DNA of 24,000 bases from Pseudochrobactrum asaccharolyticum (lineage in GTDB: Bacteria > Pseudomonadota > Alphaproteobacteria > Rhizobiales > Rhizobiaceae), in assembly GCF_003314995.1 (NCBI RefSeq), contig NZ_QNRH01000001.1, forward strand, positions 659,436 through 683,435, written 5' to 3'. Both the position numbers and the translations under genes were made by a program. The notes under the pieces were generated by a model. It ran no database searches. It worked only from the letters and a program-made list of their open reading frames with translations, and had not been told where the DNA came from. Below, piece by piece: positions 893 to 24,000 of the stretch. Positions within the stretch are counted from its first letter, which is position 1. Each line of letters begins with the position of its first letter.

Positions 893-907
893 TTAACCGA
901 ATGTCAG

Positions 908-1900: not shown

Positions 1901-2079
1901 TGGTACTGTCCGTAATTATAGAATTTTACGTCTGTAATGATGCATTTAGACTAAATGATACAGACGTTCGGGTTTATCAGAGGCCTGATAGATGTGAATA
2001 TGTTGCCCTAAGAGATGGAAATAGTCCGGCATAGTACTGAGCCGGTTATCACCATACAGACTCAAGTTTTGGATAATGC

Positions 2080-3267: not shown

Positions 3268-3284
3268 AATCAGAACGATAACGG

Positions 3285-5811: not shown

Positions 5812-5880
5812 TAAAGGCGGAACCTGAAGCGATATTGAAGCGTTGGGTAATCGGAATTTTATTCTCATCATTGTTTTAAT

Positions 5881-5910
5881 AAAGGCGGCTTTGATGCCGC
5901 CTTTTTTCTT
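5881..5910 (+). terminator. Rho-independent terminator of the Mla/MCE-type operon
   Basis: Stem AAAGGCGGC (5881-5889) / GCCGCCTTT (5896-5904), loop TTTGAT, followed by a T-rich run (TTTTTTCTTCTT). Confidence 0.8.
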
Positions 5911-6025
5911 CTTAATTCGATGAAAGAAAAATATTCTGTCTGCTGTATAAAATGCAGCAGTAAGCAGATGCGATTCTCTGGATACAGCTTAGGCTGACAG
6001 GGATTAACAGGGGGGAACAGGCCGT

Positions 6026-7798: not shown

Positions 7799-7800
7799 TA

Positions 7801-7835
7801 CCAAAGACTAATGAGCATGACTCATTGGTCTTTGG
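7801..7835 (+). terminator. Terminator-like hairpin between convergent genes (SLC13 permease / SIP)
   Basis: 15-bp stem CCAAAGACTAATGAG (7801-7815) / CTCATTGGTCTTTGG (7821-7835), loop CATGA. There is one G-U wobble on the plus-strand RNA and an A-C mismatch on the minus-strand RNA. No clear U-tract follows (TTAAG). Confidence 0.5.
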
Positions 7836-7910
7836 TTAAGCCCGAGTGGCGATTGAACATTTCAAGGCGTGATGCGTTAGCATCTTGAGCCGCCTTGGTA
7901 TAAGTGACGA

Positions 7911-8996
7911 TCAACCGGCCATAAAGCCGGTTAAATCTTTCTGCCAATATCCGGCAACGAGAGTCTGATCGCGCGATTTATCGAGCTGTTTGCGCCAATA
8001 GTCGCGCATGATTTTTGCATGGTCGGCTTCAGCGGCAAACCAGCCGAAACTGTCATTACCTTCCGGCCAGGGCAGGGCGCACAATCTGTCCGTCAGTTCT
8101 GTTGCGGCTGCCTGCTGATCAGAATTTATGATCCAGTCAATCGTCACACCTTCCGGATGTGCCAGTGGCTGAATATCGGCTTGGCTATCGACTGCAATCA
8201 GCGCATGGCCGGTAACATCCGGTGCAAATTCTTCCAGCATCCGCCCCACAGCGGGCAGGCCGGTCATATCAGCGCCGATCAGATATTGTTTTGCCTGTCG
8301 CAATGGACGACCCACAGGTCCCATCAGGCCGATTTTATCACCGGATTTGGCCTGCTTTGCCCATTGGCAGGCCAGCCCTTCGGTTTCATGAATATAGAAA
8401 TCAATCTCCATCCAGCCTTCGATAATATTGAGATTGCGGATGGTATAGGCGCGGGCGGCAGGACGGTTTTCTTCATCCGGCCAGAATGGCAGGCCATTCG
8501 GCCCCATAATCGGCCAGACGGGTTGTGGCACATCCTCTGTCGGCAAGAGCAGGCGGACATGCATGGCACCAAACAGGGAGAAGCGTGTGAGATCTTCACC
8601 GTTGAAACGGATGCGCAGCATATGCGGGGTGTAATAATGCGCTGAGACTACTGTCATCTGCCGGAATTGCGGCAGCGGCTGCTCACCAGCCTGATCACCT
8701 TCCCAGAGAATTTCCGGTGCTTCTTCTTTGGTGTAAAGTTTAATGGCGACGGCGGCGAGATCTTTCAGGCGGCTTAAACCGACATTTTCGGAAGCGCGGA
8801 GTGTTACCAGATAGCCGTCTGTGTTCGATTTCAGTTCGATATGTCCGAAACTATAATGAAACGCATGTTGCTCTTCGTGCAGATCATAATGTGCTTCATA
8901 GGAATTCAAACGGTCAATGATCGGTGGCAGATAAGCGGAACCATTATTGAGCCGGATATGGGCATAGCTGTGCAAAGTGGTTGAATGTTGTGACAC
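7911..8996 (-). CDS. Siderophore-interacting protein (SIP/ViuB-type FAD-dependent ferric reductase) with an extra ~110-aa N-terminal domain
   Basis: 361-aa ORF with a GTG start. Residues ~115-361 match the SIP architecture: a FAD-binding beta-barrel (MTVVSAHYYTPHMLRIRFNG..., RAYTIR motif) and an NAD(P)-binding part (YLIGADMTGLPAVGRMLE, FGWFAAEADHAKIMRDYW). Residues 1-110 are an additional domain; see findings. Confidence 0.85.
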   Translation of the reverse strand: MSQHSTTLHSYAHIRLNNGSAYLPPIIDRLNSYEAHYDLHEEQHAFHYSFGHIELKSNTDGYLVTLRASENVGLSRLKDLAAVAIKLYTKEEAPEILWEGDQAGEQPLPQFRQMTVVSAHYYTPHMLRIRFNGEDLTRFSLFGAMHVRLLLPTEDVPQPVWPIMGPNGLPFWPDEENRPAARAYTIRNLNIIEGWMEIDFYIHETEGLACQWAKQAKSGDKIGLMGPVGRPLRQAKQYLIGADMTGLPAVGRMLEEFAPDVTGHALIAVDSQADIQPLAHPEGVTIDWIINSDQQAAATELTDRLCALPWPEGNDSFGWFAAEADHAKIMRDYWRKQLDKSRDQTLVAGYWQKDLTGFMAG

Positions 8997-9024
8997 GGTG
9001 TTCTCGATTTCAGAAACGGAGCTA

Positions 9025-9059
9025 AAACAGAAAAAAGACAGGCAGCACTCTGCTGCCTG
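9025..9059 (-). terminator. Rho-independent terminator of the haem-receptor gene
   Basis: 9-bp GC-rich stem CAGGCAGCA (9039-9047) / TGCTGCCTG (9051-9059), loop CTC. On the minus strand it is followed by TCTTTTTTCTGTTTT. Confidence 0.85.
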
Positions 9060-9082
9060 CCAGACTGGAGAGAGTTGGCGTA

Positions 9083-11200
9083 TTAGCCGCCGAAACGTCC
9101 GGTAATTGCGACCTTGAAAGTACGTCCCTTACCTTGCTCAATATCTGAGGTGGTTGCCCAGCCGGTCTGTGCATCTGTATAGGCTTTGTTGAAAATGTTA
9201 TCGACGCCGAAGTCGAGTTTAACATTGTCTGTGACCTGCCAGTTGGCAAAGAGATTAACCAGATCGGTGCGTGGATAAACGGTCACACCATTGCTGATCG
9301 CACGGGTAACCTTGCCGACGCTTTGATATTCAACGCCATAAACCAGTCGGTCATCCAGTGCTTTCAAACCGAGCGCAGCGCTGAAATTATGCAGCGGTGT
9401 GTTGCTCAGGGATTCGCCTTTGTAGATGCCGTCTTTCATTTCCGCATCGGTGTAGGAGGCGGCGAGGTTCACATAGCCCCACCATGTGTCATAGGTGCCT
9501 TCCAGCTCCACACCACGCAGACGGGCTGTGCCGACATTCTCGGATGTTGTGTACTTGTCGATTTTAACGGTGTTGATGTAGTCCTTCACATCCGTATGGA
9601 AGATATTCAGCTTGCTGCGCAGCTGATCACCGGCCTCAATCAGATTTTCCTGTCGCAGATTGATGCCAATTTCATAGGTGGTAGCGACTTCCGGTTTCAG
9701 GAACAGGTTCGGCTCATAACCGGAGCCATGTGAACCGTTTTGACGGAACACATCCTGCATATGCGGCACGCGGTAGCCTTGTGCATAAAGACCGTAGAAC
9801 TGGATGCCTTCGATTGGTGTGATGCCGACACTCAGGCGCGGTGACACACGATTGCCGTCAAGGCTGACATCCTGAGAAGGATTGGTTGGTGTGGCTTTGC
9901 TGGTGCCGTCGAGCTTATAGCCGTCATAGCGCACGGCACTGATGACCTCGAGCCATTTCTGATATTCGCCCTGCCATTGCACAAAGCCGCCATAAGCCTG
10001 CTGCTCACCATTGCCGAAATTATCGGTATCGGAGCGACCGCGCAGCTTATAATAATCCAAGCCGTAAGTGACTGTATGTTTCAGCGCTTCTGTTTCAAAA
10101 CGCGAGCTGTTATGTGCACGGAAACCGGATGTTGAAACATCGTAATAACGGGTTGTGCCAAGGTTTTTCAGCGGCCAGACCTGATACTGATCATTCTCTG
10201 TGGCGGCATGATAGGCATTGACCGAGAGATCCCAGAACGGATTATCATCCGGCCGGTAGGTATAGCTGCCGGTATAGGTGCTGACGATAGTATCGGCATC
10301 ATAACGCGACAGGGTTGCGGAAGAGGAACCGCTGCTGCCGGTGATAATGTCTTCATATTTCTGGCGGGAGATACCGAATTTCAGCTCATGGCCTTCTGCC
10401 GGACGCATGGTGACTTTACCCATGCCGCTGATTGCTTTTTCACCCGTCCAGCGCACATAATCGCCGTCACCGTTTTTATATTCGTCACTGTCGCGGTAGT
10501 TCAGATTACCGATAATGTCGATATTCTCATTGAAGCGGTAAGCACCGGTGGTGCTGGTGAGAAAGCCTTTGCCATTGCTCTCATAGCGCAGCTTTTCGCT
10601 CAAAGCCCATGTTTCACCGTCATTCAGGAAATCGCGGGCATCTTTGGTTTCAAAGGCAACCACGCCGCCAATCGCACCGGAACCATAGATGTTGGAAACG
10701 GGGCCACGGATGACAGTCACCTGCTTGAGCAGTTCCGGTTCGATATAGAACGAGCCGGATCCGTGCCCGACACGCCAGTAGTCCTGTCTCGCGCCGTCAA
10801 GTGTCACTGCCACACGGCCATATTGCTGAAGACCGCGAATATTAATCGAGGTTGCCGGATCATCACCGTTCAGTGAGGCATGAACACCCGGCGTGAAGCG
10901 GAAAATATCCGCAGACGTCACCGGCTGAATACGGTCGATCTGCTGGCGGGAGATCAGACTGGTCGAGGCAATCGCGTCAATCACAGCTTGATCATTGCTG
11001 AGCGGGGAAATGGTAATGGTATCAAGTTCCAGCACCTGTTGTTTGGTTTTCTCTGCGCTGGTTTGTGTTGCTGCCTGCTGCTCTGTCTTGACAGGTTTGG
11101 TTTGTGCCTGAACCGGAGAGGCGGCCAAGGCCAGCAGTCCTAAGGTGCTGAGCACTGTCGTACTCATCAAACGGAAAGCAGATTTTTGCGAGATATTCAT
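9083..11200 (-). CDS. TonB-dependent haem/haemoglobin outer-membrane receptor
   Basis: 705-aa ORF. It has a signal peptide (...LLALAASPVQA|Q), a TonB-box-like LDTITIS, a plug domain (RGLQQYGRVAVTLDGARQ, IEPELLKQVTVIRGPVSNIYGSGAIGGVVAF) and a long beta-barrel. The haem-receptor FRAP/NPNL region is recognisable as YRVPHMQDVFRQNGSHGSGYEPNLFLKPE, with the His between the two boxes. Confidence 0.88.
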   Translation of the reverse strand: MNISQKSAFRLMSTTVLSTLGLLALAASPVQAQTKPVKTEQQAATQTSAEKTKQQVLELDTITISPLSNDQAVIDAIASTSLISRQQIDRIQPVTSADIFRFTPGVHASLNGDDPATSINIRGLQQYGRVAVTLDGARQDYWRVGHGSGSFYIEPELLKQVTVIRGPVSNIYGSGAIGGVVAFETKDARDFLNDGETWALSEKLRYESNGKGFLTSTTGAYRFNENIDIIGNLNYRDSDEYKNGDGDYVRWTGEKAISGMGKVTMRPAEGHELKFGISRQKYEDIITGSSGSSSATLSRYDADTIVSTYTGSYTYRPDDNPFWDLSVNAYHAATENDQYQVWPLKNLGTTRYYDVSTSGFRAHNSSRFETEALKHTVTYGLDYYKLRGRSDTDNFGNGEQQAYGGFVQWQGEYQKWLEVISAVRYDGYKLDGTSKATPTNPSQDVSLDGNRVSPRLSVGITPIEGIQFYGLYAQGYRVPHMQDVFRQNGSHGSGYEPNLFLKPEVATTYEIGINLRQENLIEAGDQLRSKLNIFHTDVKDYINTVKIDKYTTSENVGTARLRGVELEGTYDTWWGYVNLAASYTDAEMKDGIYKGESLSNTPLHNFSAALGLKALDDRLVYGVEYQSVGKVTRAISNGVTVYPRTDLVNLFANWQVTDNVKLDFGVDNIFNKAYTDAQTGWATTSDIEQGKGRTFKVAITGRFGG

Positions 11201-11262
11201 ATGACCCCCGATTATGCGGCCGGTACGCAGCGGGAGAAAATTTCATGCTGCAGGCTTGCATT

Positions 11263-11324
11263 AAGTTGACTCGTTAGCTCATGTTTAATAGGGCTATATA
11301 AATCATGATAAATAGAGTCAACTT
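11263..11324. promoter_or_regulatory. Divergent promoter region with a 10-bp inverted repeat that embeds two TGA-N9-TCA (RirA/IRO-like) motifs
   Basis: AAGTTGACTC (11263-11272) is the exact reverse complement of GAGTCAACTT (11315-11324). TGA-N9-TCA occurs twice, at 11267-11281 (TGACTCGTTAGCTCA) and 11306-11320 (TGATAAATAGAGTCA). The region lies between the divergent haem receptor (start 11200) and the hmuT-like gene (start 11330 or later). Confidence 0.45.
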
Positions 11325-11329
11325 TAATT

Positions 11330-12241
11330 ATGCGGAACAGACATTTGTGCACAAAGGTGGAAAATCATCCCTGTAAACGGCCGTTTGGCGTAAAAATCTT
11401 GCTTAAAAATGCGCTGCTTATTTTGCTGCTTGGCTTTTGCTATAATGCTCAGGCACAGGAGCAGGGAACAGCACAGCGTATTATAACGCTGGGGCCGGAT
11501 GTGACCGAGATTGTTTATGCGCTTGGCAGTAGCGACAAAATTGTAGCTCTTGACCGCAGCAGCAAATATCCGGCGGATACAGCGAATAAAACCAATGTCG
11601 GCTACCGGCGCAGTTTATCAGCCGAAGGCGTGCTGGCACTGCATCCTGATCTTATCATTGCATCAGAGGATATCGGCCCGCCGGAAGTGGCGGATGTGCT
11701 TAACCAGTCCGGTGTGCCCGTGCTGTATATTCCGGCGATCAACAGTCGTGAGGGGCTGATTACCAAGGTGAGCATGATTGCTGAACGTCTGAACCTGCAA
11801 GCGCAGGGAGAGGTGCTGACAAAGCAGATCATTGCGGATTTTGATGCAGCCATGGTGCATGTGCGTAAAGTCTCGGAAGGGCGCGGCAAGAAGGTGGTAT
11901 TTTTCCATGGTCTGACCAAACTGAGCGGTGCAGGCAGTGACACGGCGGCAGATGCTTTTATCCGTCATGCGGGCGGGGTTAATCCGCTGTCCGTCTATAA
12001 AGGTTATAAAGCCGTCTCCGAGGAATGGTTGCTGGAGGCTGAACCGGATGTGGTGCTGATGCTCTCTGACGGTGCCGGTGGCCCCAAGCCGGAGGATGTG
12101 TTTTCTGTTAAAGCGCTGCAAACCACGCCTGCGGCCAAAAGCAAATCACTGATTGTACTGGACGGGCCTTATATGCTTGGCTTCGGCCCTCGCACGGCGG
12201 AAGCTGTACGCATTCTGGCTGATGCGCTTTACGGGCAGTAA
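11330..12241 (+). CDS. hmuT: Haem/haemin ABC transporter periplasmic substrate-binding protein (HmuT-like)
   Basis: 303-aa ORF. The blocks RIITLGPDVTEIVYALGSSDKIVALD, VGYRRSLSAEGVLALHPDLIIASEDIGPPEV and VPVLYIP are collinear with HmuT/ChuT-type class III binding proteins as I recall them. The signal peptide is ...ALLILLLGFCYNAQA|QEQ. The start is uncertain: ATG 11330 gives a long N-region, and TTG 11399 would give a compact signal peptide (MLKNALLILLLGFCYNAQA). Confidence 0.82.
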   Translation: MRNRHLCTKVENHPCKRPFGVKILLKNALLILLLGFCYNAQAQEQGTAQRIITLGPDVTEIVYALGSSDKIVALDRSSKYPADTANKTNVGYRRSLSAEGVLALHPDLIIASEDIGPPEVADVLNQSGVPVLYIPAINSREGLITKVSMIAERLNLQAQGEVLTKQIIADFDAAMVHVRKVSEGRGKKVVFFHGLTKLSGAGSDTAADAFIRHAGGVNPLSVYKGYKAVSEEWLLEAEPDVVLMLSDGAGGPKPEDVFSVKALQTTPAAKSKSLIVLDGPYMLGFGPRTAEAVRILADALYGQ

Positions 12242-12247
12242 TTACAT

Positions 12248-12823
12248 TCAATCATCAATTTTCTTCGGCAGCAGTTTTTCAATATCGCGGAAAATCTGCT
12301 GCCATTCATCTTCATTCAGATCAAAAAGCTGAAAACTGCGCAGCAGAAACGCACCCTCATTGGCTATAAAAGCTAAGCGGGCATTGCGCCCTTGTTCTGT
12401 TGATACATCCAGTTCGCTCAGTTGCTGACGATACCATTGACGGGTATCTGCCAGATGCTCGGAATTGGGGATCAGTGCAGCCAGCATTGCGGCAAAGCGT
12501 GAGTCACCGAGCGGATCACTATCGCGCGTTACCCGTATATGCGCGGCAATATGGGACAGCATGTCGGTTTTACCGTTTTTCTCGGTTGTAACCTTCTTGT
12601 CAAATTTATTGCCCCAACGGGTGAGCATGGCATCAACCAACCCGTCTTTGGTGCCGAAACAATATTGCACTCCGCCTTTGGTGATACCTGCTGCTTTAGC
12701 CAGCGCATCAATCGTCAAAGCAGTGGCACCATGCTCGACGACAATTTTCTCCGCCAGATCCAGCAAGTGATTGCGGTCGATTGTGCGGGGGCGGCCGATT
12801 TTTGTGTGTTTTTTACTTTCCAT
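12248..12823 (-). CDS. TetR/AcrR-family transcriptional regulator
   Basis: 191-aa ORF with an N-terminal TetR HTH (GRPRTIDRNHLLDLAEKIVVEHGATALTIDALAKAAGITKGGVQYCFGTKDGL). It is divergent from an MFS efflux-type gene. Confidence 0.9.
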   Translation of the reverse strand: MESKKHTKIGRPRTIDRNHLLDLAEKIVVEHGATALTIDALAKAAGITKGGVQYCFGTKDGLVDAMLTRWGNKFDKKVTTEKNGKTDMLSHIAAHIRVTRDSDPLGDSRFAAMLAALIPNSEHLADTRQWYRQQLSELDVSTEQGRNARLAFIANEGAFLLRSFQLFDLNEDEWQQIFRDIEKLLPKKIDD

Positions 12824-12831
12824 ACGTATGG
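12820..12831. promoter_or_regulatory. Perfect 12-bp palindrome overlapping the TetR start codon (candidate operator)
   Basis: CCATACGTATGG at 12820-12831 is self-complementary. The TetR ATG is the complement of 12821-12823. Beside it, GATTTAAA (12831-12838) recurs at 12903-12910. Confidence 0.35.
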
Positions 12832-12911
12832 ATTTAAATTATCGACCTTCGGGTTTCAAGTGTTTATTGCAACGATCAGCTCCCGGATACGTTGCAGACT
12901 TTGATTTAAAC

Positions 12912-12928
12912 GTGCTGAAAAACAGCAC
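12912..12928. promoter_or_regulatory. Inverted repeat GTGCTG-N5-CAGCAC just upstream of the MFS RBS (candidate TetR operator)
   Basis: GTGCTG (12912-12917) / CAGCAC (12923-12928) with spacer AAAAA. It lies 20 nt upstream of the MFS ATG at 12948. Confidence 0.35.
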
Positions 12929-12947
12929 AACAGAAGTGGATTTTACA

Positions 12948-14447
12948 ATGGCATTACAAAACCGCTGGCTGGTTCTGGCCATCGTTTCGAGTGCATTATT
13001 TTTAATCGTTATTGATATGACAGTGCTTTACACAGCTCTGCCGCGCCTTACCCATGATCTTGCGGCAAGTGCTTCTGAAAAGCTCTGGATCATCAATGCC
13101 TATCCGCTGGTCGTTGCGGGCTTGCTGCCGGGTGTCGGCAGTCTTGGTGACCGCCTTGGCCATAAACGCATGTTCACATCAGGTCTCGTCGTTTTCGGAC
13201 TTGCATCGCTGACTGCCGCCTATGCACCGACAGCTGAAGTGCTGATTGCAGCGCGTGTATTGCTTGCCGTTGGTGCGGCGATGATGATGCCTGCAACCCT
13301 CTCGATCATTCGACTGACGTTTGAGGATGAGCATGAACGCTCTTTCGCAATTGGTATCTGGGCGGCAGTTGCCTCCGGCGGTGCTGCATTCGGTCCTGTG
13401 GTTGGCGGTGTGCTGCTCGAATACTTTTGGTGGGGCTCTGTTTTCCTCATCAATGTACCGGTTGTCGTGATCGCGCTGCTCTTTGCCCTGTTTGTACTGG
13501 AAAGCCGCCCCGGTAATAAAAACCGCAAATGGGACCTGATCGGTTCCATTCAGGTGATGATCGGTCTGGTTGGCGTGACTTTTGCGCTGAAAGAACTGGC
13601 AAAGCGTGACGGTTCTCTGGTGTTGTTTGCCGTCGCACTGGTTGTTGGTCTGACCGCGCTGGTTGTGTTCTATCGCAGGCAGCGGGCAACCAACGGCATG
13701 CTGATTGATTTCTCGCTGTTTAGTAACCGCAAATTCTCGTCCGGCGTCATGGCAGCTTCGGTCTCTGCAGCGGCTTTGATTGGTGTGGAGCTGGTTTTCA
13801 GCCAGCGCTTGCAGCTGGTCGCCGGTTATTCGCCGCTCGAGGCCGGTTTGCTCATTCTGCCAATTCCGCTGGCTGCCTTTGTAGCAGGGCCTCTGGTCGG
13901 CTGGGGCTTGCCTAAAATCGGTGCTGCGCGGGTACTGTGGGGCGGGATGATGATTACAGGTCTCGGCTGTACGCTGTATTTGCTGAGCTTCCAGCTACAG
14001 CCACATGTCTGGCTGATCGGGCTGATGATTATGGGCTTTGGTGTCGGTGCGTCAATGACCGGTGCTTCCACGGCTATTATGGGCAATGCACCGCAGGAAA
14101 AGGCCGGTATGGCTGCCTCTGTAGAGGAGGTGTCCTTTGAACTCGGCGGTGCAACCGGCGTTACGATTTTCGGTAGTCTGATGACTGCGATCTACACGGC
14201 TTTCATGGTGATACCAGCAGGTTCAGGCTTTACTGATACCATTCGTGACAGTCTGGATGAGGCATTGTTATTTGCGGAAACGTTGCCTGCGGATCAGGCA
14301 CAGCACTTGCGTGAAATCGGATTCATTGCCTTTGATCAGGCCTTTATGTGGGTGATTGGCACAGCAGTCCTGCTGATCTTTTCAACGGCTTTGCTGATTT
14401 TCCGGATGAACCGGAAATCCTGTGAGGCAGCTTTGAAAAAAGCATAA
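12948..14447 (+). CDS. MFS transporter, DHA2 (EmrB/QacA-type, 14-TMS) drug:H+ antiporter family
   Basis: The track ORF starts at 12771, but that N-terminus overlaps the TetR gene and is not hydrophobic. ATG 12948 (MALQNRWLVLAIVSSALFLIVIDMTVLYTALP...) follows a GAAGTGGA RBS and matches the usual DHA2 N-terminus. The predicted 499-aa protein carries motif A-like GSLGDRLGHKRM. Confidence 0.88.
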   Translation: MALQNRWLVLAIVSSALFLIVIDMTVLYTALPRLTHDLAASASEKLWIINAYPLVVAGLLPGVGSLGDRLGHKRMFTSGLVVFGLASLTAAYAPTAEVLIAARVLLAVGAAMMMPATLSIIRLTFEDEHERSFAIGIWAAVASGGAAFGPVVGGVLLEYFWWGSVFLINVPVVVIALLFALFVLESRPGNKNRKWDLIGSIQVMIGLVGVTFALKELAKRDGSLVLFAVALVVGLTALVVFYRRQRATNGMLIDFSLFSNRKFSSGVMAASVSAAALIGVELVFSQRLQLVAGYSPLEAGLLILPIPLAAFVAGPLVGWGLPKIGAARVLWGGMMITGLGCTLYLLSFQLQPHVWLIGLMIMGFGVGASMTGASTAIMGNAPQEKAGMAASVEEVSFELGGATGVTIFGSLMTAIYTAFMVIPAGSGFTDTIRDSLDEALLFAETLPADQAQHLREIGFIAFDQAFMWVIGTAVLLIFSTALLIFRMNRKSCEAALKKA

Positions 14448-15662: not shown

Positions 15663-16976
15663 TCAGGCTGTCTTTTTATTATCGCTCATTTTGAAAATCG
15701 CGAACAATGCGATGACAGCTGCGATACTGACATACCATGCCGGTGCGCTGTAGCCGAGCGAGGTTGTGCCGAGCCATGTCAGTGCTGCCGGAGCAAAACC
15801 ACCGAAAATTGTGGTGGAGATGTTATAGGCAAGCGACATACCGGTTGAACGGATATGGGTCGGGAAGACTTCGGACAGAGCGGAAGGTGCAACGCCAACC
15901 ACACCGGCAACCATAACACAGAAGCAGCTCTGAACAGTGATCAGGGTGCTGAGTGTTGGTGAGTGATGCAGCCACCACAGCAGCGGATGAATAGCAATCA
16001 GCAGCACGGTTGTGGTGATCGCCAGTGTCAAACGACGGCCGATCTTGTCGGAAACAGCACCGGCAACGATACAACCGACAGCCATAAGACTATTTCCGAT
16101 CAGGGCAGCAATGAATGCCTGTGAACCGGTGAAACCGAATGCACGCTGTACATAGATCGGCATATAGATGATCATGACATAGACGCTGGCTGCCCATAAT
16201 ACGGAGAAGGCTGTACCTTTGAGCAATGCACCGCCATAATTGACGAATACTTCTTTCAGAGGGGCATGTTCTGCAGTTTTGCCTTGTTTATCAAATTCAG
16301 CTTTGAAAACAGGCGTTTCATCCAGTGAACGGCGCATCCACAGACCAACAGGTGCAATCAGCAGGCCGAGGATGAACGGAATACGCCAGCCCCAGTCACC
16401 AACCTGATCTTCAGTGAGAAGTGAGGTGACAGCGAGAGCAACAAAGGCACCAATAATATTGGAAAATGCCATACTGGCCTGCAGCCATGCAGCATATTTA
16501 CCTTTTTGACCTTCCGGCGCATGCTCCACCAGAAAGGCTGCGGCACTGCCGACTTCACCACCGGCTGAGAAGCCCTGCAGCACACGGCCGGCAAGAATAA
16601 TCATCGGAGCGCCGATACCGATCGCGGCATAGGTTGGTGCAATAGCGATCAGCAGCGTACCGGCTGCCATGATCATGATTGTCAGAAACAATGCCGCTTT
16701 ACGACCGGCTTTGTCGGCATAAACGCCGAGGACAACCGCGCCCAGCGGACGGATCAGAAAGCCAAGACCAAAGGCCAGAAAGGACTTGATCAGCTCGACA
16801 GTGTCATTTCCGCCAGGGAAAAAATTCTTGGCGATGTAAACGGCAAACAAAGCGTAGATTGTAAAATCATACCATTCCAGCGCATTACCGATAGAAGCGG
16901 CAGCGACAGCCTTTTTGGCATTGGAATTCGGCTTTGCGTCCGATTTGATAGTTTGATTATGTGTAACGTCCGTCAT
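15663..16976 (-). CDS. MFS transporter, metabolite:H+ symporter (MHS) family (ProP/KgtP/ShiA-like)
   Basis: 437-aa ORF. The blocks AAASIGNALEWYDFTIYALFAVYIAKNFFPGG, FLIRPLGAVVLGVYADKAGRK and WGWRIPFILG are collinear with E. coli ProP/KgtP as I recall them. It lacks the ProP C-terminal coiled coil. An RBS GGGGGA lies ~10 nt upstream. Confidence 0.88.
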   Translation of the reverse strand: MTDVTHNQTIKSDAKPNSNAKKAVAAASIGNALEWYDFTIYALFAVYIAKNFFPGGNDTVELIKSFLAFGLGFLIRPLGAVVLGVYADKAGRKAALFLTIMIMAAGTLLIAIAPTYAAIGIGAPMIILAGRVLQGFSAGGEVGSAAAFLVEHAPEGQKGKYAAWLQASMAFSNIIGAFVALAVTSLLTEDQVGDWGWRIPFILGLLIAPVGLWMRRSLDETPVFKAEFDKQGKTAEHAPLKEVFVNYGGALLKGTAFSVLWAASVYVMIIYMPIYVQRAFGFTGSQAFIAALIGNSLMAVGCIVAGAVSDKIGRRLTLAITTTVLLIAIHPLLWWLHHSPTLSTLITVQSCFCVMVAGVVGVAPSALSEVFPTHIRSTGMSLAYNISTTIFGGFAPAALTWLGTTSLGYSAPAWYVSIAAVIALFAIFKMSDNKKTA

Positions 16977-17104
16977 ATGACAGAATCCCCCAAATATTCC
17001 GGCTGTGGTCTTTTATGTCTCATCTCCCACCAGCAATACGAGACAGTAACAATTTAACTTTGTGTCGGCAGTTGACAAAAAATGAATGTCTCCATAGCGA
17101 AAAA

Positions 17105-17119
17105 CGAAATAGTATTTCG
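17105..17119. promoter_or_regulatory. Perfect 15-bp palindrome in the MHS / LysR divergent promoter region (candidate LTTR operator)
   Basis: CGAAATAGTATTTCG at 17105-17119 has 7-bp arms around a central G. It lies 77 nt upstream of the LysR ATG (17196) and 129 nt upstream of the MHS start (16976). Confidence 0.4.
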
Positions 17120-17195: not shown

Positions 17196-19007
17196 ATGAT
17201 CGAGCTGCGGCAGCTTTCTTACTTTGTGGCGGCCTGCCATCAAACCAGCTTCAGCAAGGCGGCTGAAGTTCTGGATATTGCGCTGTCAACTTTGAGTGTT
17301 GCGCTGCAGAATCTGGAAGAGGAAGTCGGCGCGCAACTGTTCCGCCGCGTACCGGCCGGGCTGACGCCGACTGTGGCAGGTCGCTGGCTCTATCGCGCTG
17401 CAATACCACTTTTGCAAGCCGAAGCTTTCACCCGACAGGCCACAATGCGGGAGTGTAACGGGCAATGCGAATTCAGCCATTTGGTGGTTGAAGTGCAGCT
17501 GATGTTCTCACTTGGTAATGTCTCCAAGGCCATAAGCTCGGCTTTGGTCGGCCTGCAAAAAGACTATCCGGAAGTGTTTATCGAGCCACATTGGGGCAGT
17601 TCGGACGGGGAGCCGCCTTTGCCGCTGACCGAGAGTACTGAGAGTAACCGGATAATCTTCAGCTATGAGAAAAAGGGTGTCGCCATTCACGATGATCCGT
17701 GGGTGCTGGCGCGTAGTCTGCCGGTTCAATCCGGTGAGGCTCCTGCCTTGCAGGATATGCTTGCAGGTCCGGTGATTGTTCCGGCACTGCCCGAGCCGCT
17801 CTTGCAGGATTTGTCGGGCTATTTGCAGCAGCATCCGATTAAGAATATCCGTTTTACACAGGATCATCCGGGCACTCTGGCACGCCTGAGTGGCGAGAAC
17901 CCGGATACCGCTTTTCTGGTGCCGCAAAGCACACTAGCCAACCGCATGGGGTTGCATCGCCTGAAACTGGTGCCGCTTGATCCACCGCTTATCAGTCAGG
18001 TGCGGGTGCATATTGCCGATCCGCATCCGGTGGCGGAAGAGACTGTACGCCGTATCCGTGCGGCACTGGCATCCGGAGAGCCTTCAGCACTCTATCAACC
18101 GCAACTGACCAGACGGCAATTCAGCTATTTCCGGCTGATTGACAATAACCGCAATCTGACTGCCGCTGCCCGTGTGGCTAAAGTTGCCCAACCGGCGATT
18201 ACCGGCCAGCTGCGTAAGATGGAGCAGGTGATTGGCAAACAATTATTTGAGCGCCGCCGCGATGGTCTGGTGCCGACTGAGGCAGGGCGCATCTTCCGCA
18301 TTGGTAGTGAACTGATCGAAGCACGTTTGCAATCCATGGCCGTGCATAGTGCGGGATCACTGGGGCGCAACCGGTCGCGTTTACGGATTGGTGTTCTGCC
18401 TTCGGTCAGTCAGGAAAGCACTCTGCTGGCAGGTATGACCGATGCGGTGCTGCGCTGGCGCAAAAGTCACCCGCAGATTGACCTGCAAATTCTCGAAGCG
18501 CCAACCAGTGTTTTGCAGGATTGGGTACAGGCGGGTGTGATCAGCCTTGCCGTGCTGGAAACCGATATGCCGCACATGGCGCGTTTCAGACTCAATGTTG
18601 AGGAACCGCTGTCGCTGATCTGCCATCCCGATCTGGCAGCAGAGCTCTCTCAGGGTACAGGCGTTGATCTGGAAACACTGCGTCAGGTGCCGCTGGTGCT
18701 GCCGACTATGACCTTTGGCATCCGGCAATTGCTGGAAACACAATTGAACGAGCAAAACCTGTCGCTGGAGCCGGTGATTGAAATTAACTCACTGCCGATG
18801 ATGATCGCGATGATCCGGCGCGAAAAGCTTGCAACCTTGCTGCCGGTCTCAGCCGTGCGTCGCGATCTGGAACAGGGCACATTGGTGAACCTTGAACTCA
18901 AGCCGCATATTTTGCGCAGATTGTTTGTGATCTATTCCAATGCCCGCACTCTGACGGTTGCCGAAAGAGAGCTGGTGCGCGAATTGCGCGAGGCACTCAC
19001 ACAATGA
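17196..19007 (+). CDS. Tandem (duplicated) LysR-type transcriptional regulator: two complete HTH + effector-binding modules in one polypeptide
   Basis: The track ORF starts at GTG 17190. ATG 17196 is better placed after the TGAAGG RBS. Module 1 has HTH IELRQLSYFVAACHQTSFSKAAEVLDIALSTLSVALQNLEEEVGAQLFRR plus ~210 aa. Module 2 starts near nt 18105 with HTH LTRRQFSYFRLIDNNRNLTAAARVAKVAQPAITGQLRKMEQVIGKQLFERR, followed by a canonical LysR substrate-binding domain (LRIGVLPSVS...). There is no stop or frameshift at the junction. Confidence 0.85.
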   Translation: MIELRQLSYFVAACHQTSFSKAAEVLDIALSTLSVALQNLEEEVGAQLFRRVPAGLTPTVAGRWLYRAAIPLLQAEAFTRQATMRECNGQCEFSHLVVEVQLMFSLGNVSKAISSALVGLQKDYPEVFIEPHWGSSDGEPPLPLTESTESNRIIFSYEKKGVAIHDDPWVLARSLPVQSGEAPALQDMLAGPVIVPALPEPLLQDLSGYLQQHPIKNIRFTQDHPGTLARLSGENPDTAFLVPQSTLANRMGLHRLKLVPLDPPLISQVRVHIADPHPVAEETVRRIRAALASGEPSALYQPQLTRRQFSYFRLIDNNRNLTAAARVAKVAQPAITGQLRKMEQVIGKQLFERRRDGLVPTEAGRIFRIGSELIEARLQSMAVHSAGSLGRNRSRLRIGVLPSVSQESTLLAGMTDAVLRWRKSHPQIDLQILEAPTSVLQDWVQAGVISLAVLETDMPHMARFRLNVEEPLSLICHPDLAAELSQGTGVDLETLRQVPLVLPTMTFGIRQLLETQLNEQNLSLEPVIEINSLPMMIAMIRREKLATLLPVSAVRRDLEQGTLVNLELKPHILRRLFVIYSNARTLTVAERELVRELREALTQ

Positions 19008-19075: not shown

Positions 19076-20722
19076 TTATGCCAGATTGAAGTGGCGGATG
19101 TTTTTCTTTTCCGCTTCGTCCAGCGCTTCTTCATAACCGGCATCGGCATAACGCATCACGCCGAGCGATGTGTCATTGGTCAATGACAGTTCAATGCGGA
19201 CATCCGCATCATCGGTACCATCGGCCACCACAGTCACACCCGCGCTGGTCATATAGCCGGAATAACCGCCGCCGCCGGAATGAATAGCGACAAGATCAGC
19301 TTGCGAGGAGCACATAGCCAGACCATTGATCAGCGGCCAGTCGGCAATCGCATCAGAACCATCACGCATATTCTCAGTCATGATATTCGGATGCGCCATG
19401 GCACCGGCATCAAGATGATCGCGGGTAAAGGCAACAGGGCCGGACAGCGTACCGTCACGCACCATGCTATTCACAGCGAGTGCCAGCTGAGTGCGTTCGC
19501 CATGGCCAAGCCATGCGATACGCGCTGGCAGACCTTCAAACGGCACATTCTCACCGGCGAGATGGATCCAGTTGGTGACAATGCGGTTATCGGCAAATGC
19601 CTTGAGGATGTAATTGTCGATAATGCGGATATCTTCCTGATTATTCGACAGAGCAATCCAGCGGAACGGGCCAATCGCACGGCAGAACAACGGACGCAGG
19701 AAGGCTTCGGTGAAGACCGGAATATTGAACGCATCTGCCACGCCGCCGTCTTTGGCATGGGTGCGGATCAGGTTACCATTGTCAAACACCACTGAACCGG
19801 CTTTCTGGAAACCGAGCATGGCTGTGACGTGACGAACGATGGAAGCGCGGCTTTCATTCATCAGGGTCTGCGGATCGCTCTTACGCATGGCACGGGCTTC
19901 ATCCAGCGAACGGGTTGCCGGTACATAGCCGTAAACCAGATCATGGGCGGAGGTTTGGTCAGTTACGATATCCGGAATGATATTGCGTTCCAGAATCTGC
20001 TCATAAAGATCAGCGGCATTGCCGTGAACGCCGATGGAAACAGCGCGTTTCTCGGCCATCGCTGTTTTGACCTGCGCCAGCGCATCGTCCAGATCTTTGG
20101 CAATCACATCAAGGAAGCCGATATCCTTGCGCTTCTGAATGCGTTCCTGATCGATTTCAACGCAGAGCGTAACCGCACCGGCCATACGGCCTGCCAGTGG
20201 CTGCGCGCCGCCCATGCCGCCAAGACCGGCGGTGAGGATCAGACGACCGGCCAGATTATTATTGAAGCTCTGTTCGGCAATACGCATGAAGATTTCATAG
20301 GTGCCCTGAATAACACCCTGCGAGCCGATATACTGCCAGTCACCGGCAGTAAGACCACCCCAGCAGATCAGGTTCTGCTTTTCCCATTCGTAGAAATTTT
20401 CAGCCTTCGCCCACTGACCAACCATATTACAGTTGGCCATAATCACGACTGGTGCCTGTTTATGGGTTTTCAGAATGCCGATCGGCTTGCCGGATTGTAC
20501 GACGAGCGTTTCGTCTTCTTCAATCTTGTGCAGGCTTTCAACGATTTTGTCATGAGACGGCCAGTCGCGTGCGGCTTTACCAAGTGCGGCATAGACCACC
20601 AGATTGTCAGGGTCTTCACCCACAGCCAGTACGTTTTCCATCAAACGCAGCAGGCCTTCAGCGCGCCAGTTCTTACAGCGCAACTCAGTGCCGGATGTGA
20701 CGTTAAATTGTTTCTTGGACAT
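19076..20722 (-). CDS. hutU: Urocanate hydratase (urocanase) family protein; a divergent paralogue and candidate thiourocanate/modified-urocanate hydratase
   Basis: 548-aa ORF, collinear over its full length with urocanases. Shared blocks are ETLVVQSGKPIG, YIGSQGVIQGTYE, NAD-binding LTAGLGGMGGAQPLAG, VTDQTSAHD, RPLFCRAIGPFRW and MRDGSDAIADWP. Several canonical urocanase motifs are altered; see findings. It is the last gene of a four-gene operon. Confidence 0.9.
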   Translation of the reverse strand: MSKKQFNVTSGTELRCKNWRAEGLLRLMENVLAVGEDPDNLVVYAALGKAARDWPSHDKIVESLHKIEEDETLVVQSGKPIGILKTHKQAPVVIMANCNMVGQWAKAENFYEWEKQNLICWGGLTAGDWQYIGSQGVIQGTYEIFMRIAEQSFNNNLAGRLILTAGLGGMGGAQPLAGRMAGAVTLCVEIDQERIQKRKDIGFLDVIAKDLDDALAQVKTAMAEKRAVSIGVHGNAADLYEQILERNIIPDIVTDQTSAHDLVYGYVPATRSLDEARAMRKSDPQTLMNESRASIVRHVTAMLGFQKAGSVVFDNGNLIRTHAKDGGVADAFNIPVFTEAFLRPLFCRAIGPFRWIALSNNQEDIRIIDNYILKAFADNRIVTNWIHLAGENVPFEGLPARIAWLGHGERTQLALAVNSMVRDGTLSGPVAFTRDHLDAGAMAHPNIMTENMRDGSDAIADWPLINGLAMCSSQADLVAIHSGGGGYSGYMTSAGVTVVADGTDDADVRIELSLTNDTSLGVMRYADAGYEEALDEAEKKNIRHFNLA

Positions 20723-20746
20723 AATAGTACTTTCTATACCGCTAAA

Positions 20747-21835
20747 TCAGGCCAGTGCGTAATCGGCAAGGGAAATGCCGAGTGCCTTTTCGACAATCGG
20801 ATAAACGCTCGGGTCTTTGACCGAGGCGCTGAGCGGAATTTCTGTCTTGTTGATGTGGAACACCAGAATTTCCATACCTTCATGGACATTGCCGACACTG
20901 ACAGGGCTGCCATTTGTATCGAGCGTGGTGATCACATCAGGGAAGGTGGCAAGACGCTGACCGTCACCATCATCCACGGCCATATATTCGTTCATCACAT
21001 GCAGGATCACATCGCGGTTGCCGTCACGCACGGTGATGGTGCCGATGTCGAAAGCTTCCTGCGTGTAGTGCACATTCTTGGCGGTGACTTTGCCCTGTGC
21101 GAGAATGCTGCCATTGGTGGTTTTGCAGATTGCATCAATCACCGCAGTTGCGCCTTTGCTCTGGGCTGCGCGGATGGCTTCGCCAAGGGTCAGAGCACGG
21201 GAGATACCGCCGAGCGCTGCATTCCTGCGCACATAGGAAGCACGCAGCGGATTGCGGCAGCTGGCGATGAAACCACCGGACATATCAGAGGCTTTGCGCA
21301 GGATCGGCGAGATTTTGGCTGTCGCGCCGCGTGTGACCAGCTCGATATAGGAGTTGGAATCACGGTGACCGCCAACGGCTGTCTGGATCATCTGCTCAGG
21401 GCTGTTGGCCATGCCGATGGAGCCCATGTCGCCAGTCGGATGCGCGCGGATATCGCCCACAGCATCAATCACTTTGGTGCCGAGAACAGCGGAAGGCAGC
21501 CAGGCATTCATGGTGCTGGACATGCCGTTCTGGCCGATCATCAGGCCATAGACTTCATCGCCCAACTCATATTGCAGCAGTTCAACGGCTTTCACATAGT
21601 CGATGCCGAGCATTTCCCACTGGGTGGTGCTGGCCGGTGCGCCGATAGCAGCGGCTGTGGCAATCCATGCATCGTCGGATACTTCTTCCATATCCACCAG
21701 TTCAGGCCGGCCAATGGTGACCGCAGTGGTGCCCAGCATACGGCCGTGCTCAACCCAGCCGCCGCCACCGGCTGCAAAGACCGAACCGCCTGCAATTGCG
21801 GATTCCACGTCATCCAATGTTAAAATACGCCCCAT
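20747..21835 (-). CDS. DUF917-family protein (PF06032; hydantoinase-associated; candidate thiohydantoin desulfurase)
   Basis: 362-aa ORF. The N-terminus ILTLDDVESAIAGGSVFAAGGGGWVEHG shows the G-rich motif I associate with DUF917. Its size and its placement among hydantoinase and carbamoylase genes are typical of the family. A strong RBS GAGGAGG sits in the 12-nt gap upstream. Confidence 0.75.
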   Translation of the reverse strand: MGRILTLDDVESAIAGGSVFAAGGGGWVEHGRMLGTTAVTIGRPELVDMEEVSDDAWIATAAAIGAPASTTQWEMLGIDYVKAVELLQYELGDEVYGLMIGQNGMSSTMNAWLPSAVLGTKVIDAVGDIRAHPTGDMGSIGMANSPEQMIQTAVGGHRDSNSYIELVTRGATAKISPILRKASDMSGGFIASCRNPLRASYVRRNAALGGISRALTLGEAIRAAQSKGATAVIDAICKTTNGSILAQGKVTAKNVHYTQEAFDIGTITVRDGNRDVILHVMNEYMAVDDGDGQRLATFPDVITTLDTNGSPVSVGNVHEGMEILVFHINKTEIPLSASVKDPSVYPIVEKALGISLADYALA

Positions 21836-21847
21836 AATGGCCTCCTC

Positions 21848-23134
21848 TTAAATGCTGTTATGTGTTTGATTGGTAACCGGAGTGCGCTCGTCAAAGCGGC
21901 GCACTGCCGCAAACATTGCTGCAGCACCTGCTGCAAGGTCGTGTTTTTCTGCCCATTCTTCCGGTGTATGGCTGCGTCCGCCAAGGCATGGCACAAAGAC
22001 CATGGCGGCCGGTGCCAGCTGGCCGATAAAGGCCGCATCATGCCCCGCACCGCTGGCGAGTTGCAGATGGCTATGGCCGAGTGCATCGGCGCTTTTTGCC
22101 AGATCATCCAGCAGGCCTAAGTCACAATCCATCGGCATGGTGTCGGAAAGGGTCTTGAAGTGGCTGCGCTCCACATTGGCTTTCGCGGCAGCAAGTTGTG
22201 TTGCCGCATCAATGCTTTCCAGAAAACGCAGCGTTTTCTCGCGTTTACCGGTGCGGATGTCGACAATCACCTTGGCCTGTTCCGGCACCACATTGGCACC
22301 GCCCGGCTCAAGGGTGAGAATGCCGACAGTGGCAACAAAATAGCCGTCCGGCTCGGATGCCAAAGCTTCGGCCTGTTCACGGATTGCAGTGACGGCTTGC
22401 GCTGCCGCATAAAGCGCATCGCGGCGCATATGCATTGGCGTGGTGCCCGCATGGTCAGCGGCACCCTGAAAGGCAATTTCCAGACGGGTGATGCCGACAA
22501 TGCCGGTCACCAGACCCAAATCCGTCTTGCTCTGTTCCAGTACAGGGCCTTGCTCAATATGCAGTTCCAGATAGGCGGCAATATCCTTGCGCACAGCCTC
22601 TGAAAGTTTGGCCGGATTGCCGCCGACACGGATCAGCGCATCGCCGAGGCGCTCATCCTGCGGGCCCGTAAAGTCGAGCATAGCATTGGTCAGCTGACCG
22701 CTCATGCCACGGCTACCGACACAGGACAGACCGTATTCACTAGGTTCCTCTGCGAGAAAATCCACCACTTCCAGATTGTGCTGCAACTCAATACCGGCAT
22801 CGCGCAGGGCGCGGGCAACTTCGAGTGCTGCCACCACACCGGCAATGCCGTCAAAGCGTCCGCCGGAAGGCACAGTATCACTATGCGAAGCCATCATAAT
22901 GGTTTTGGCGTGCGGCTTGGCACCGGTACGGCGGCCGATCAGATTGCCTGCGGTATCAATGCGCACCTCAAGACCGGCGGCTTTGAATTGCTCAATCAGA
23001 TAGGCGCGGCCAGCCAGAAAACGCGGCGTAAAAGAACGGCGCGTGTAAGGCTTGCCCGGCTCGGTAATATCGGCCAGCGCCATAATATCCTGCCAGAGCC
23101 GGTCGCCGTCTACGAGCGTGTTGGAGGCCGCCAT
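21848..23134 (-). CDS. M20-family Zn-dependent amidohydrolase (N-carbamoyl-L-amino-acid hydrolase / allantoate amidohydrolase type)
   Basis: 428-aa ORF. The blocks DRLWQDIMALADI, AGLEVRIDTAGNLIGRRTG, IMMASHSDTVPSGGRFDGIAGVVAALE and HTPEE near the C-terminus are characteristic of the AmaB/HyuC/AllC carbamoylase clade. Its start overlaps the upstream stop by 1 nt (TAATG). Confidence 0.88.
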   Translation of the reverse strand: MAASNTLVDGDRLWQDIMALADITEPGKPYTRRSFTPRFLAGRAYLIEQFKAAGLEVRIDTAGNLIGRRTGAKPHAKTIMMASHSDTVPSGGRFDGIAGVVAALEVARALRDAGIELQHNLEVVDFLAEEPSEYGLSCVGSRGMSGQLTNAMLDFTGPQDERLGDALIRVGGNPAKLSEAVRKDIAAYLELHIEQGPVLEQSKTDLGLVTGIVGITRLEIAFQGAADHAGTTPMHMRRDALYAAAQAVTAIREQAEALASEPDGYFVATVGILTLEPGGANVVPEQAKVIVDIRTGKREKTLRFLESIDAATQLAAAKANVERSHFKTLSDTMPMDCDLGLLDDLAKSADALGHSHLQLASGAGHDAAFIGQLAPAAMVFVPCLGGRSHTPEEWAEKHDLAAGAAAMFAAVRRFDERTPVTNQTHNSI

Positions 23135-24000
23135 TACGCGGCTCCTTTACGCAGAGCAGGGCGTACAAAGCGACCGGAACCCGGTTCAGCTGTGACCACA
23201 CCTTCAGCCATGGCGCATTCACCGCGCACAAATGTATGGGTGATGCGGAACGGCAGTGTGATGCCGTCATAAGGGCTCCAGCCGACGATGTTATTGCCGC
23301 TTTCTGCCGCCTTGTAAGTGTATGGATCACGGCGTGCCAGCACGATATCCGCATCAAGACCGGCACCGAGCGCACCTTTGGTCTGACCGAGGCGGAACAG
23401 ATTGGCCGGATTATGTGCCAGCAGACGGGCGGCATGGCTGAGCGACAAACCGCGCTCATCCAGACCTTTGAGCAGCAGCGCATAGAGCGCCTCCAGCCCC
23501 GGAACACCGGATGCGTTTTTCAGCATGTTTTCATCGTTTTTGCGATCAAGCGACCAGCTCACATGATCGGTGGAAACAATGCTCACGTTACCGGCGGCCA
23601 GTTGCTGCCAGATGGCTTCACGCTCGGCGCGGTTGCGTACCGGCGGGTTGATCTTAGCGCGGCCGATCAGACGGCTGACATCATCTTCTTCACACAAGGT
23701 CAGATAGTGGATGCAGGCTTCAACTGTTGCGGCATAGCCCTGTGCACGGTAGCCTGCTGCCAGTTCATAGCCACGGCCAACGGAGCAATGCACCACATGG
23801 GTGGCGCAACCGCTCATGGCGCCGATCTCATAGACTTCTGCCATCGCCAGCGTTTCAGTTACCGGCGGGCGGCTCATGCTATGGGTCAGATAATCGGTGC
23901 GGCCGCTTTTCTCGACCTGATCGATGTAATAGCGCACCATTTCATCATTTTCATTATGAATACCGGCAATCAGACCATGACGGGCAATGGCCGAGAAGCA
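23134..24000 (-). CDS. Cyclic amidohydrolase (allantoinase / dihydropyrimidinase / hydantoinase family), C-terminal ~288 codons (partial; continues past the right edge)
   Basis: The track lists 23134-23940 from an internal Met, but the frame stays open to nt 24000. My translation upstream of that Met reads CFSAIARHGLIAGIHNENDE-MVRYY... The blocks IHNEND, THVVHCS, HYLTL, STDHVSW (metal-binding Asp region) and GADADIV match the allantoinase/hydantoinase fold. Confidence 0.85.
   Translation of the reverse strand, partial: CFSAIARHGLIAGIHNENDEMVRYYIDQVEKSGRTDYLTHSMSRPPVTETLAMAEVYEIGAMSGCATHVVHCSVGRGYELAAGYRAQGYAATVEACIHYLTLCEEDDVSRLIGRAKINPPVRNRAEREAIWQQLAAGNVSIVSTDHVSWSLDRKNDENMLKNASGVPGLEALYALLLKGLDERGLSLSHAARLLAHNPANLFRLGQTKGALGAGLDADIVLARRDPYTYKAAESGNNIVGWSPYDGITLPFRITHTFVRGECAMAEGVVTAEPGSGRFVRPALRKGAA

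Follow-up and report, generated by a model that had tools for sequence, protein, structure and literature searches.

Why would a bacterium join two transcriptional regulators of the same family in a single polypeptide, and what might such a protein control? The question is raised by a stretch of 24,000 nt from the alphaproteobacterium Pseudochrobactrum asaccharolyticum (contig NZ_QNRH01000001.1, positions 659,436 to 683,435 of the forward strand; hereafter the window), in which a coding sequence on the + strand at 17196-19007 specifies a protein of 603 aa plus stop with full-length homologues elsewhere. LysR-type transcriptional regulators (LTTRs) constitute the largest family of bacterial transcription factors. 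The usual LTTR chain of about 300 aa, with one module, is not what is found here, since 603 aa and two modules in one frame are seen throughout the family of this protein. Our analysis confirmed that the gene consists of two LysR-type regulator modules joined in one chain. The interpretation favoured here, to which we assign a probability of roughly 0.62, is that it encodes a natural single-chain tandem LTTR which is pathway-specific for the uptake and catabolism of ergothioneine.

Two LysR-type modules in one chain

The reading frame, taken from the ATG at 17196 (a GTG at 17190 is a possible alternative start), remains open to 19007, with no stop or frameshift. The order of the domains, all encoded on the + strand, is a first helix-turn-helix (HTH1), a diverged effector-type domain (CTD1), a short linker, a second helix-turn-helix (HTH2) and a canonical effector-binding domain (EBD2). 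HTH1 (aa 4-63; 17205-17384) is a winged helix of the HTH_1 family, matched by Pfam PF00126 with E=7.8e-17 and 61.4 bits, and HTH2 (aa 306-365; 18111-18290) is matched by the same family over aa 307-365 with E=8.4e-15 and 54.9 bits, the cut-off being 26.6 bits. EBD2 (aa 391-601; 18366-18998) is a canonical LysR_substrate domain (PF03466, E=3.4e-29, 102 bits, cut-off 28 bits). CTD1 (aa ~91-295; 17466-18080) is assigned a highly diverged LTTR-type effector-binding-domain fold from AlphaFold2 (AF2) modelling and Foldseek comparison, and is discussed in its own section below. The junction between the modules (aa 294-305; 18075-18110) is short, poorly conserved (19-33% identity) and without a start codon, with ...ALYQPQ passing into LTRRQFSYF... 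at nt 18105. A first-pass annotation of the window had proposed two LTTR modules joined in frame over ~603 aa, a junction near nt 18105 devoid of Met, stop and frameshift, and a canonical second effector domain. All of this has been borne out, by the two PF00126 domains and orthologues conserved from end to end, by an uninterrupted frame with CAA-CTG codons at the junction, and by the PF03466 score. Its expectation that each Pfam family would occur twice held for PF00126, and failed for PF03466, which was detected only at aa 391-601.

Profile-profile comparison with hhalign shows the two helix-turn-helix domains to be homologous (E=2.9e-19, 33% identity). Their recognition helices are each invariant within the family and unlike each other. 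That of HTH1 is a non-canonical A-x-S-T-L-S (ALSTLS here), with A29, S31, T32, L33 and S34 invariant in the family alignment, while that of HTH2 is the canonical A-Q-P-A-[IL]-[ST], with Q332, P333 and A334 invariant.

Among 5.8 billion protein clusters, 24 full-length homologues were found (601-705 aa, 38-95% identity, 99-100% query coverage), and the 25 sequences including the query align end to end across the junction. When one genome was scanned for each GTDB species, 56 loci with the fused regulator were located, numbered here with the prefix L. Seven of these are from Pseudochrobactrum (92-98% identity) and the rest are 31-42% identical, with locus L001 at 65%; the distant loci belong to Bradyrhizobium, Afipia, Nitrobacter, Rhodopseudomonas, Xanthobacteraceae, Roseiarcus, Reyranella, Sphingomonas/Sphingobium and gammaproteobacterial Steroidobacterales. 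An unbroken frame of 601-677 aa is present in about 47 of the 53 full-length loci, the exceptions being a few contigs from metagenome-assembled genomes (MAGs), and no split version was seen, which settles in favour of a single fused gene the comparison with two adjacent genes that had been suggested earlier. In the MAG contigs concerned the regulator frame is interrupted or shortened (228 aa in L008, 568 aa in L049, fragmentary in L050, 563 aa in L055), and these are possible pseudogenes or assembly errors. Locus L006 (JAHREI010000002.1, 266882-288690) carries the title 'Bacillus subtilis strain SK6B4' and is 97% identical to the present locus, the whole adjoining operon included; it is almost certainly a contaminated or mislabelled assembly.

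An internal translation start for module 2 was considered and ruled out by the junction codons. At the positions of Q303 and L304, GTC/CAA/GCC and ATC/CTG/GTC respectively predominate (CAA-CTG in the window), and the L304-equivalent codon is a potential start in only 7 of 50 sequences, so that separate translation of module 2 is not a feature of the family. No internal start is conserved, and the fused gene thus appears to yield a single chain on translation. Ratios of nonsynonymous to synonymous substitution (dN/dS) among the seven Pseudochrobactrum orthologues lie between 0.016 and 0.077 across all segments, which indicates purifying selection on every domain. HTH1 is the most constrained part (0.016, with 70% mean identity in the family), followed by HTH2 (0.021), EBD2 (0.044) and CTD1 (0.058).

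Ergothioneine genes and a predicted asymmetric operator

Convergent with the regulator, on the - strand, lies an operon which the first-pass annotation described as being of hydantoin/urocanase type. The convergent arrangement stands, and NCBIfam equivalogs identify the operon more specifically as an ergothioneine catabolic (ert) cluster, an assignment made on curated profile matches. It comprises the thiourocanate hydratase ErtB (19076-20722; NF058530, 1016 bits, cut-off 930), the thiohydantoin desulfurase ErtC (20747-21835; NF058529, 626 bits, cut-off 440), the N-carbamyl-L-glutamate amidohydrolase ErtE (21848-23134; NF058540, 588 bits, cut-off 520) and the 3' part of the hydantoin-5-propionate amidohydrolase ErtD (23134-24000; NF058538, profile positions 186-446), a gene which runs off the window. 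An open reading frame of 664 aa at 19829-21823 on the + strand, antisense across ertB/ertC, is a shadow frame without family evidence and not a gene. In L001 the operon continues with a complete ErtD and an aromatic-lyase-family ergothionase, ErtA, and the same holds for the Pseudochrobactrum loci L005-L011; ErtA matches only HAL-family models, below cut-off, and no curated ergothionase model was matched. Divergent from the regulator is an MHS-family MFS metabolite/H+ symporter (15663-16976, - strand), which is co-located in L001, L004, L012 and L033 and may import ergothioneine or a related betaine.

The linkage between the regulator and these genes is widespread. In tblastn searches ErtB, ErtC, ErtD or ErtE was found within 10 kb of the regulator in the great majority of loci with enough flank, and the linkage is kept at 35-65% regulator identity and across orders. 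The homologues P0006 (43% identity) and P0024 (38%) likewise occur in clusters with urocanase-like and S-Me-THD-type genes. Two layouts have been observed: in the first, that of the window, the regulator is convergent with ertB, and in the second, that of many Bradyrhizobium-type loci, it is convergent with ertE-ertD. The second layout has a divergent operon encoding a further pair of ErtB-like (~51%) and ErtC-like (~35%) proteins, a GST, a UbiD-family decarboxylase and a branched-chain-type ABC transporter (e.g. L003 444-9768; also L016, L021 and L022, at ~500-9800), a gene content that may reflect a variant pathway acting on a related thio-imidazole compound. Divergent transcription from a putative target, an LTTR trait, is seen here with the MHS transporter and in the Bradyrhizobium-type loci with the UbiD-ABC-ErtC/B-like operon.

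The upstream regions of the regulator genes share a 16-nt box, CATAGGCAAAATCGAA with variants, from Bradyrhizobium to Steroidobacterales. The pattern [CT]ATA[GA]GNNAANN[CT]GAA has 41 matches in 2.3 Mb (both strands) against 0.25 in shuffled sequence, a count which is circular in that the box was derived from the same upstream regions, so that only the second-site result described next is independent. Among these matches, 39 of 41 are on the regulator strand, one per locus, 39-159 nt (mostly 68-79) upstream of the ATG. A 26-nt position weight matrix (PWM) trained on regulator-proximal sites only then finds second sites, with the consensus AAGCnGCCGATAGGAAAAAnnnAA, in 34 loci at 67-154 nt upstream of the ert operon. 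The 5' end of the targeted operon is ErtD in the Bradyrhizobium and Xanthobacteraceae types and ErtA in L001 and Pseudochrobactrum, where the box upstream of ertA in one strain reads AAACCGGCAATAACAAAAAGCTAAAT. The strand of the second site follows that of its target gene, both being flipped in L020, and only about four stray matches occur elsewhere. In total the PWM gives 86 matches of at least 11 bits in 1.13 Mb, compared with 3.1 +/- 1.9 expected. The plausible regulation of neighbouring genes that had been put forward from the window alone thus gains support from the conserved ert linkage and from predicted boxes at both the regulator and the ert operon.

In the window, the predicted operator box lies at 17085-17110 (+ strand; core CATAGCGAAAAACGAA at 17093-17108) and is the only PWM match of at least 10 bits in the 24 kb. 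Its core, ATAG-N7-CGAA, has the 15-bp T-N11-A spacing (T-AGGCAAAATCG-A), and the half-sites ATAG and CGAA are not reverse complements, so that there is no dyad. The classical LTTR recognition site is ATAC-N7-GTAT, a T-N11-A motif of 15 bp. A palindrome at 17105-17119, CGAAATA-G-TATTTCG (CGAAATAGTATTTCG), had been singled out earlier as a site for binding assays. It is indeed present, and the 3' end of the conserved box supplies its left arm; as an operator it was rejected in favour of the asymmetric box, given that its right arm varies among Pseudochrobactrum species (TTTCG, TTTCC, TTTTC, TTTCA) and that distant loci show no dyad. The hexamers TTGTCA-N16-TAAATT, at 17051-17078 on the - strand, are a sigma-70-like candidate, by consensus match only, for the promoter of the divergent transporter gene. 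The box stands just upstream of this pair of hexamers, and its core would consequently fall at about -49 to -64 of the putative transporter promoter. This is the region where LTTR recognition sites are usually positioned.

From these elements a mode of action can be proposed, in which we infer the effector, the oligomeric state, the pairing of the HTHs and the sign of regulation alike. Two fused chains would assemble into the equivalent of an LTTR tetramer, in which each DNA-binding unit may be a heteropair of HTH1 and HTH2 placed on the non-symmetric 15-bp core ATAG-N7-CGAA; the box would have the geometry of the canonical ATAC-N7-GTAT / T-N11-A site with two different half-sites. One such heteropair per box is the simplest fit, because the protein has two different conserved readers and the site is conserved, non-symmetric and of LTTR geometry. 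Bound at about -50 to -65 relative to the target promoters, the protein would activate them once an inducer, possibly ergothioneine or an early intermediate such as thiourocanate, occupies EBD2, whose canonical loops are intact and which is the likely inducer sensor. CTD1 would serve either as a fixed, non-equivalent partner in the effector-domain dimer or as the sensor of a second signal.

Like domains could instead pair with each other, HTH1 with HTH1 and HTH2 with HTH2, giving two DNA-binding units on two sites, for example one for recognition and one for activation. LTTR tetramer geometry permits pairs of DNA-binding domains between different chains, as the structures of CbnR and BenM illustrate. 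A second conserved element, GATC[AC]TATCGGCC, is also available in Bradyrhizobium-type intergenic regions, ~45 nt further upstream than the main box (L047, at ~9880, is an example), and may be an activation site or second binding site. Such an arrangement is nonetheless judged unlikely, while keeping some weight, as the best-conserved element is not the dyad that a homotypic pair would be expected to read, and the second-site boxes before ert operons are equally asymmetric. As separate observations on these intergenic regions, the GATC[AC]TATCGGCC element contains CCTAT, the reverse complement of the ATAGG of the box, and a promoter-like pair, TGACGC-N17-CTATGCT, follows the main box in the Bradyrhizobium-type loci.

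Several points weigh against a pathway-specific ergothioneine regulator acting through HTH1/HTH2 heteropairs. Many of the loci come from related Bradyrhizobium and Xanthobacteraceae genomes, and their counts do not represent independent events. The box in the window is a variant with three mismatches (15.8-16.8 bits), and the promoter of ertA lies outside the window. The full-length AF2 model has a predicted TM-score (pTM) of only 0.64. Distant fused relatives occupy contexts other than ert clusters. A Sphingomonas-type clade (~35% identity) has neither ErtB-E within 10 kb nor the box, and its regulator gene is followed by a TonB-dependent receptor gene and one or two HAL-like lyases which, as is the case for ErtA, score far below the true HutH cut-off; a relative of this clade, L004, does carry ErtB and ErtC. 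The Sphingomonas-type context also includes a peptide-type ABC transporter. In L004, L041, L042, L045, L054 and L060, all of Sphingomonas type, there is no ATAG-N7-CGAA box, and a TGCGcTGCAGcGCA-like palindrome is found beside a TTGACA hexamer. The clades without the box differ in both recognition helices, a covariation of recognition helix with operator type which is suggestive only.

The first effector-type domain

CTD1 has proved difficult to place by sequence. No Pfam family matches aa 74-303 even at E<=10, a 15-sequence family profile of CTD1 found no match among all PDB sequences at E<=10, and hhalign aligns CTD1 (aa 88-303) collinearly with EBD2 (aa 388-603) at E=0.07, which is not significant alone. 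Structure prediction was more informative. The whole-chain AF2 model built from the family alignment reaches a mean predicted local distance difference test score (pLDDT) of 84 with the pTM given above, and a model of CTD1 alone reaches a pLDDT of 82.6 and a pTM of 0.78. In Foldseek searches of the PDB, the latter matches LTTR effector-binding domains (CcpE, BenM, CatM, CynR, CbnR, OxyR, NtcB and HinK) with E~1e-8, probability 1.0, TM scores of 0.5-0.65 and 10-16% identity. The whole-chain model matches LTTR structures with E~1e-18, in a table that does not specify which module is aligned. As the sequence comparison is not significant, homology of CTD1 to LTTR effector domains rests on the predicted fold, which points to a highly diverged LTTR-type effector domain; modelling of this kind had been recommended by the first-pass annotation.

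In the full-chain model the order of strands and helices in CTD1 is the same as in EBD2, except for the helix after strand 2 (H437-446 in EBD2), the counterpart of which is a low-confidence loop at aa 134-150 (17595-17645, + strand; pLDDT 53-67). This loop varies in length within the family and is shorter here than in most relatives. It accounts for the insertion reported earlier in the first effector domain insofar as a variable loop at aa ~134-150 does exist; the loop stands in place of a helix of the canonical domain.

The domain seems essentially confined to the fused architecture. A phmmer search of 1.84 billion representative proteins with CTD1 alone gave only 58 proteins at E<=1e-3, nearly all of them 600-640 aa long with the domain at residues ~75-310, and no ordinary LTTR was among the matches. 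A stand-alone module 1 was sought in the only match of ~300 aa, P0081 (322 aa), and was rejected, as the last residues of that sequence, '...QPHMTLRQVKHFLTLCADLN', already belong to the beginning of the second HTH, which marks it as a fused protein that has been truncated.

It may be asked whether module 1 is a relic, with only module 2 binding DNA and effector and the N-terminal 300 residues acting passively or as an oligomerisation scaffold. The silence of the Pfam and PDB sequence profiles, the non-significant alignment with EBD2, the replacement of a helix by a disordered loop and the lack of the canonical QPA motif in HTH1 would all suit such a relic. We regard it as rather improbable in view of what has been retained. 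No other segment is under tighter constraint than HTH1, whose recognition helix is invariant and whose Pfam match is strong (61 bits). In CTD1, 15 residues do not vary across a 15-sequence domain alignment, F104, G107, W133, D167, W169 and P196 are among those invariant in the family alignment, and dN/dS is 0.058. The predicted operator is non-palindromic, which a homodimer of HTH2 alone would not account for. The description of the first effector domain as degenerate, offered before these data, is therefore apt in the sense that CTD1 has diverged past detection by hidden Markov models and misleading in the sense of decay, since its fold, its invariant residues and its dN/dS do not indicate a decaying domain.

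The protein might further be thought of as a single-chain LTTR heterodimer in which two HTHs read two half-sites while two effector-type domains integrate two signals. This extension is tentative, and on balance doubtful. Under it, ergothioneine could, for example, be sensed through an aromatic-rich pocket of CTD1 (invariant F104, W133 and W169), and a pathway intermediate or a nutrient-status signal through EBD2. If it were true, the protein would be the first dedicated ergothioneine-responsive transcription factor, and it would have hard-wired the asymmetry between compact and extended subunits, which is only transient in ordinary LTTR tetramers.

Known regulators and other genes of the window

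With canonical LTTRs such as CbnR, BenM, CysB, OxyR and CcmR the fused regulator shares the HTH_1 winged helix, the long linker helix, a two-lobed effector domain similar to periplasmic binding proteins, the divergent gene arrangement and a predicted 15-bp T-N11-A operator just upstream of the target promoter. It differs from them in having two covalently joined modules over 603 aa instead of about 300 aa, HTHs which are only 33% identical and carry different recognition helices, and one effector domain that has diverged past sequence recognition. The canonical operator is dyad-symmetric, whereas the half-sites of the box are not reverse complements of each other.

The best-scoring curated NCBIfam models for aa 306-598 are those of NAC and CynR, and JGI labels several homologues 'nitrogen assimilation regulatory protein', which could indicate a general nitrogen-assimilation (NAC-like) or other global LTTR lying beside ert genes by chance. 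This is very improbable. Neither score reaches half of its curated cut-off (NAC NF008410, 125.6 against 309 bits; CynR NF008416, 137 against 277 bits), and the JGI names are accordingly unsupported; both context and architecture differ from those of NAC and CynR. The ert linkage across orders and a box found, within the 20-kb loci, essentially only at regulator and ert promoters also argue against it. NCBIfam has no specific model for the fused regulator. As for the fusion being an artefact of sequencing or assembly, or the product of a pseudogenising mutation that recently removed a stop codon between two ordinary adjacent LTTR genes, the interrupted frames of the four MAG loci L008, L049, L050 and L055 could hint at it, but the same in-frame junction in ~47 species genomes and 24 protein clusters, at identities as low as 35%, the absence among them of any split two-gene version or stand-alone module 1, and the purifying selection on all domains leave it practically no credibility.

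Fused LTTRs with the same two-module architecture were also found at a greater distance, on plasmids of Agrobacterium, Rhizobium and Ensifer (618-621 aa; 96-97% of the length, 25-33% identity), where RefSeq annotates them only as 'LysR family transcriptional regulator'. Their recognition helices carry other residues, no match to the box accompanies them, and their neighbours are UbiD/UbiX-ABC or PrpD-hydantoinase-ABC clusters and not ert genes, from which it follows that the fused architecture is not restricted to ergothioneine clusters. Examples are the genes at 8986-10842 in L061 (A. vitis pRvVAR031a) and 8986-10851 in L062 (A. fabrum pAtAG67), with UbiD/UbiX-ABC-PEP-mutase or PrpD-hydantoinase A/B-amino-acid-ABC clusters around them.

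No description of a tandem, fused or double LTTR was found in the literature, of which most subscription journals fall outside our coverage, and this agrees with the earlier remark that no characterised example was known. Within the same coverage, no regulator of ergothioneine catabolism was found. The enzymes of the ert pathway have been described, and it is their NCBIfam equivalogs that the adjacent operon matches; NCBIfam likewise yielded no regulator of the pathway, a place that the fused protein would take. Bacterial repressors have been engineered as single-chain dimers, single-chain TetR for example, with two DNA-binding subunits in one polypeptide, so that non-identical halves and asymmetric operators become possible. 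Single-chain TetR is a laboratory construct in another family, in contrast to the fused LTTR, which is natural, ancient and conserved. What is new is thus a conserved, natural single-chain double LTTR with a predicted role in ergothioneine uptake and catabolism and a predicted asymmetric operator, and not a new class of system; the architecture is already present in public databases. Such a regulator would be of note to those who work on LTTRs and of use in the study of ergothioneine.

LTTRs act as asymmetric tetramers of identical subunits, and their mechanism has been hard to dissect, as each mutation affects all four. A natural, conserved covalent tandem with non-identical modules, and with an operator that is apparently non-symmetric, separates the roles of the subunits genetically, and could be used to test models of DNA bending and activation by LTTRs. 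For the bacterial catabolism of ergothioneine, the fused protein is the first regulator to be put forward as a candidate, and it comes with both an operator and a regulon that are predicted. It might be developed into a biosensor responsive to ergothioneine or thiourocanate, and regulator and box together could serve as a genomic marker for ergothioneine-degrading bacteria and their transporters.

Several other gene groups were noted elsewhere in the window. An iron/haem uptake block at 7911-12241 comprises a siderophore-interacting FAD-binding protein (7911-8996, - strand), a TonB-dependent haem/haemoglobin receptor (9083-11200, - strand) and a periplasmic binding protein (11330-12241, + strand). 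It is followed by a TetR-family repressor (12248-12823, - strand), divergent from an SmvA/QacA-like DHA2 efflux MFS transporter in a block spanning 12248-14447. With the TTG start listed for the transporter, at 12771, its first 53 nt would fall within the TetR gene, and the true start probably lies further downstream. An Mla-like ABC system at 2080-5811 consists of a STAS-MlaE fusion permease, an ATPase, an MlaD-domain protein and an auxiliary lipoprotein.

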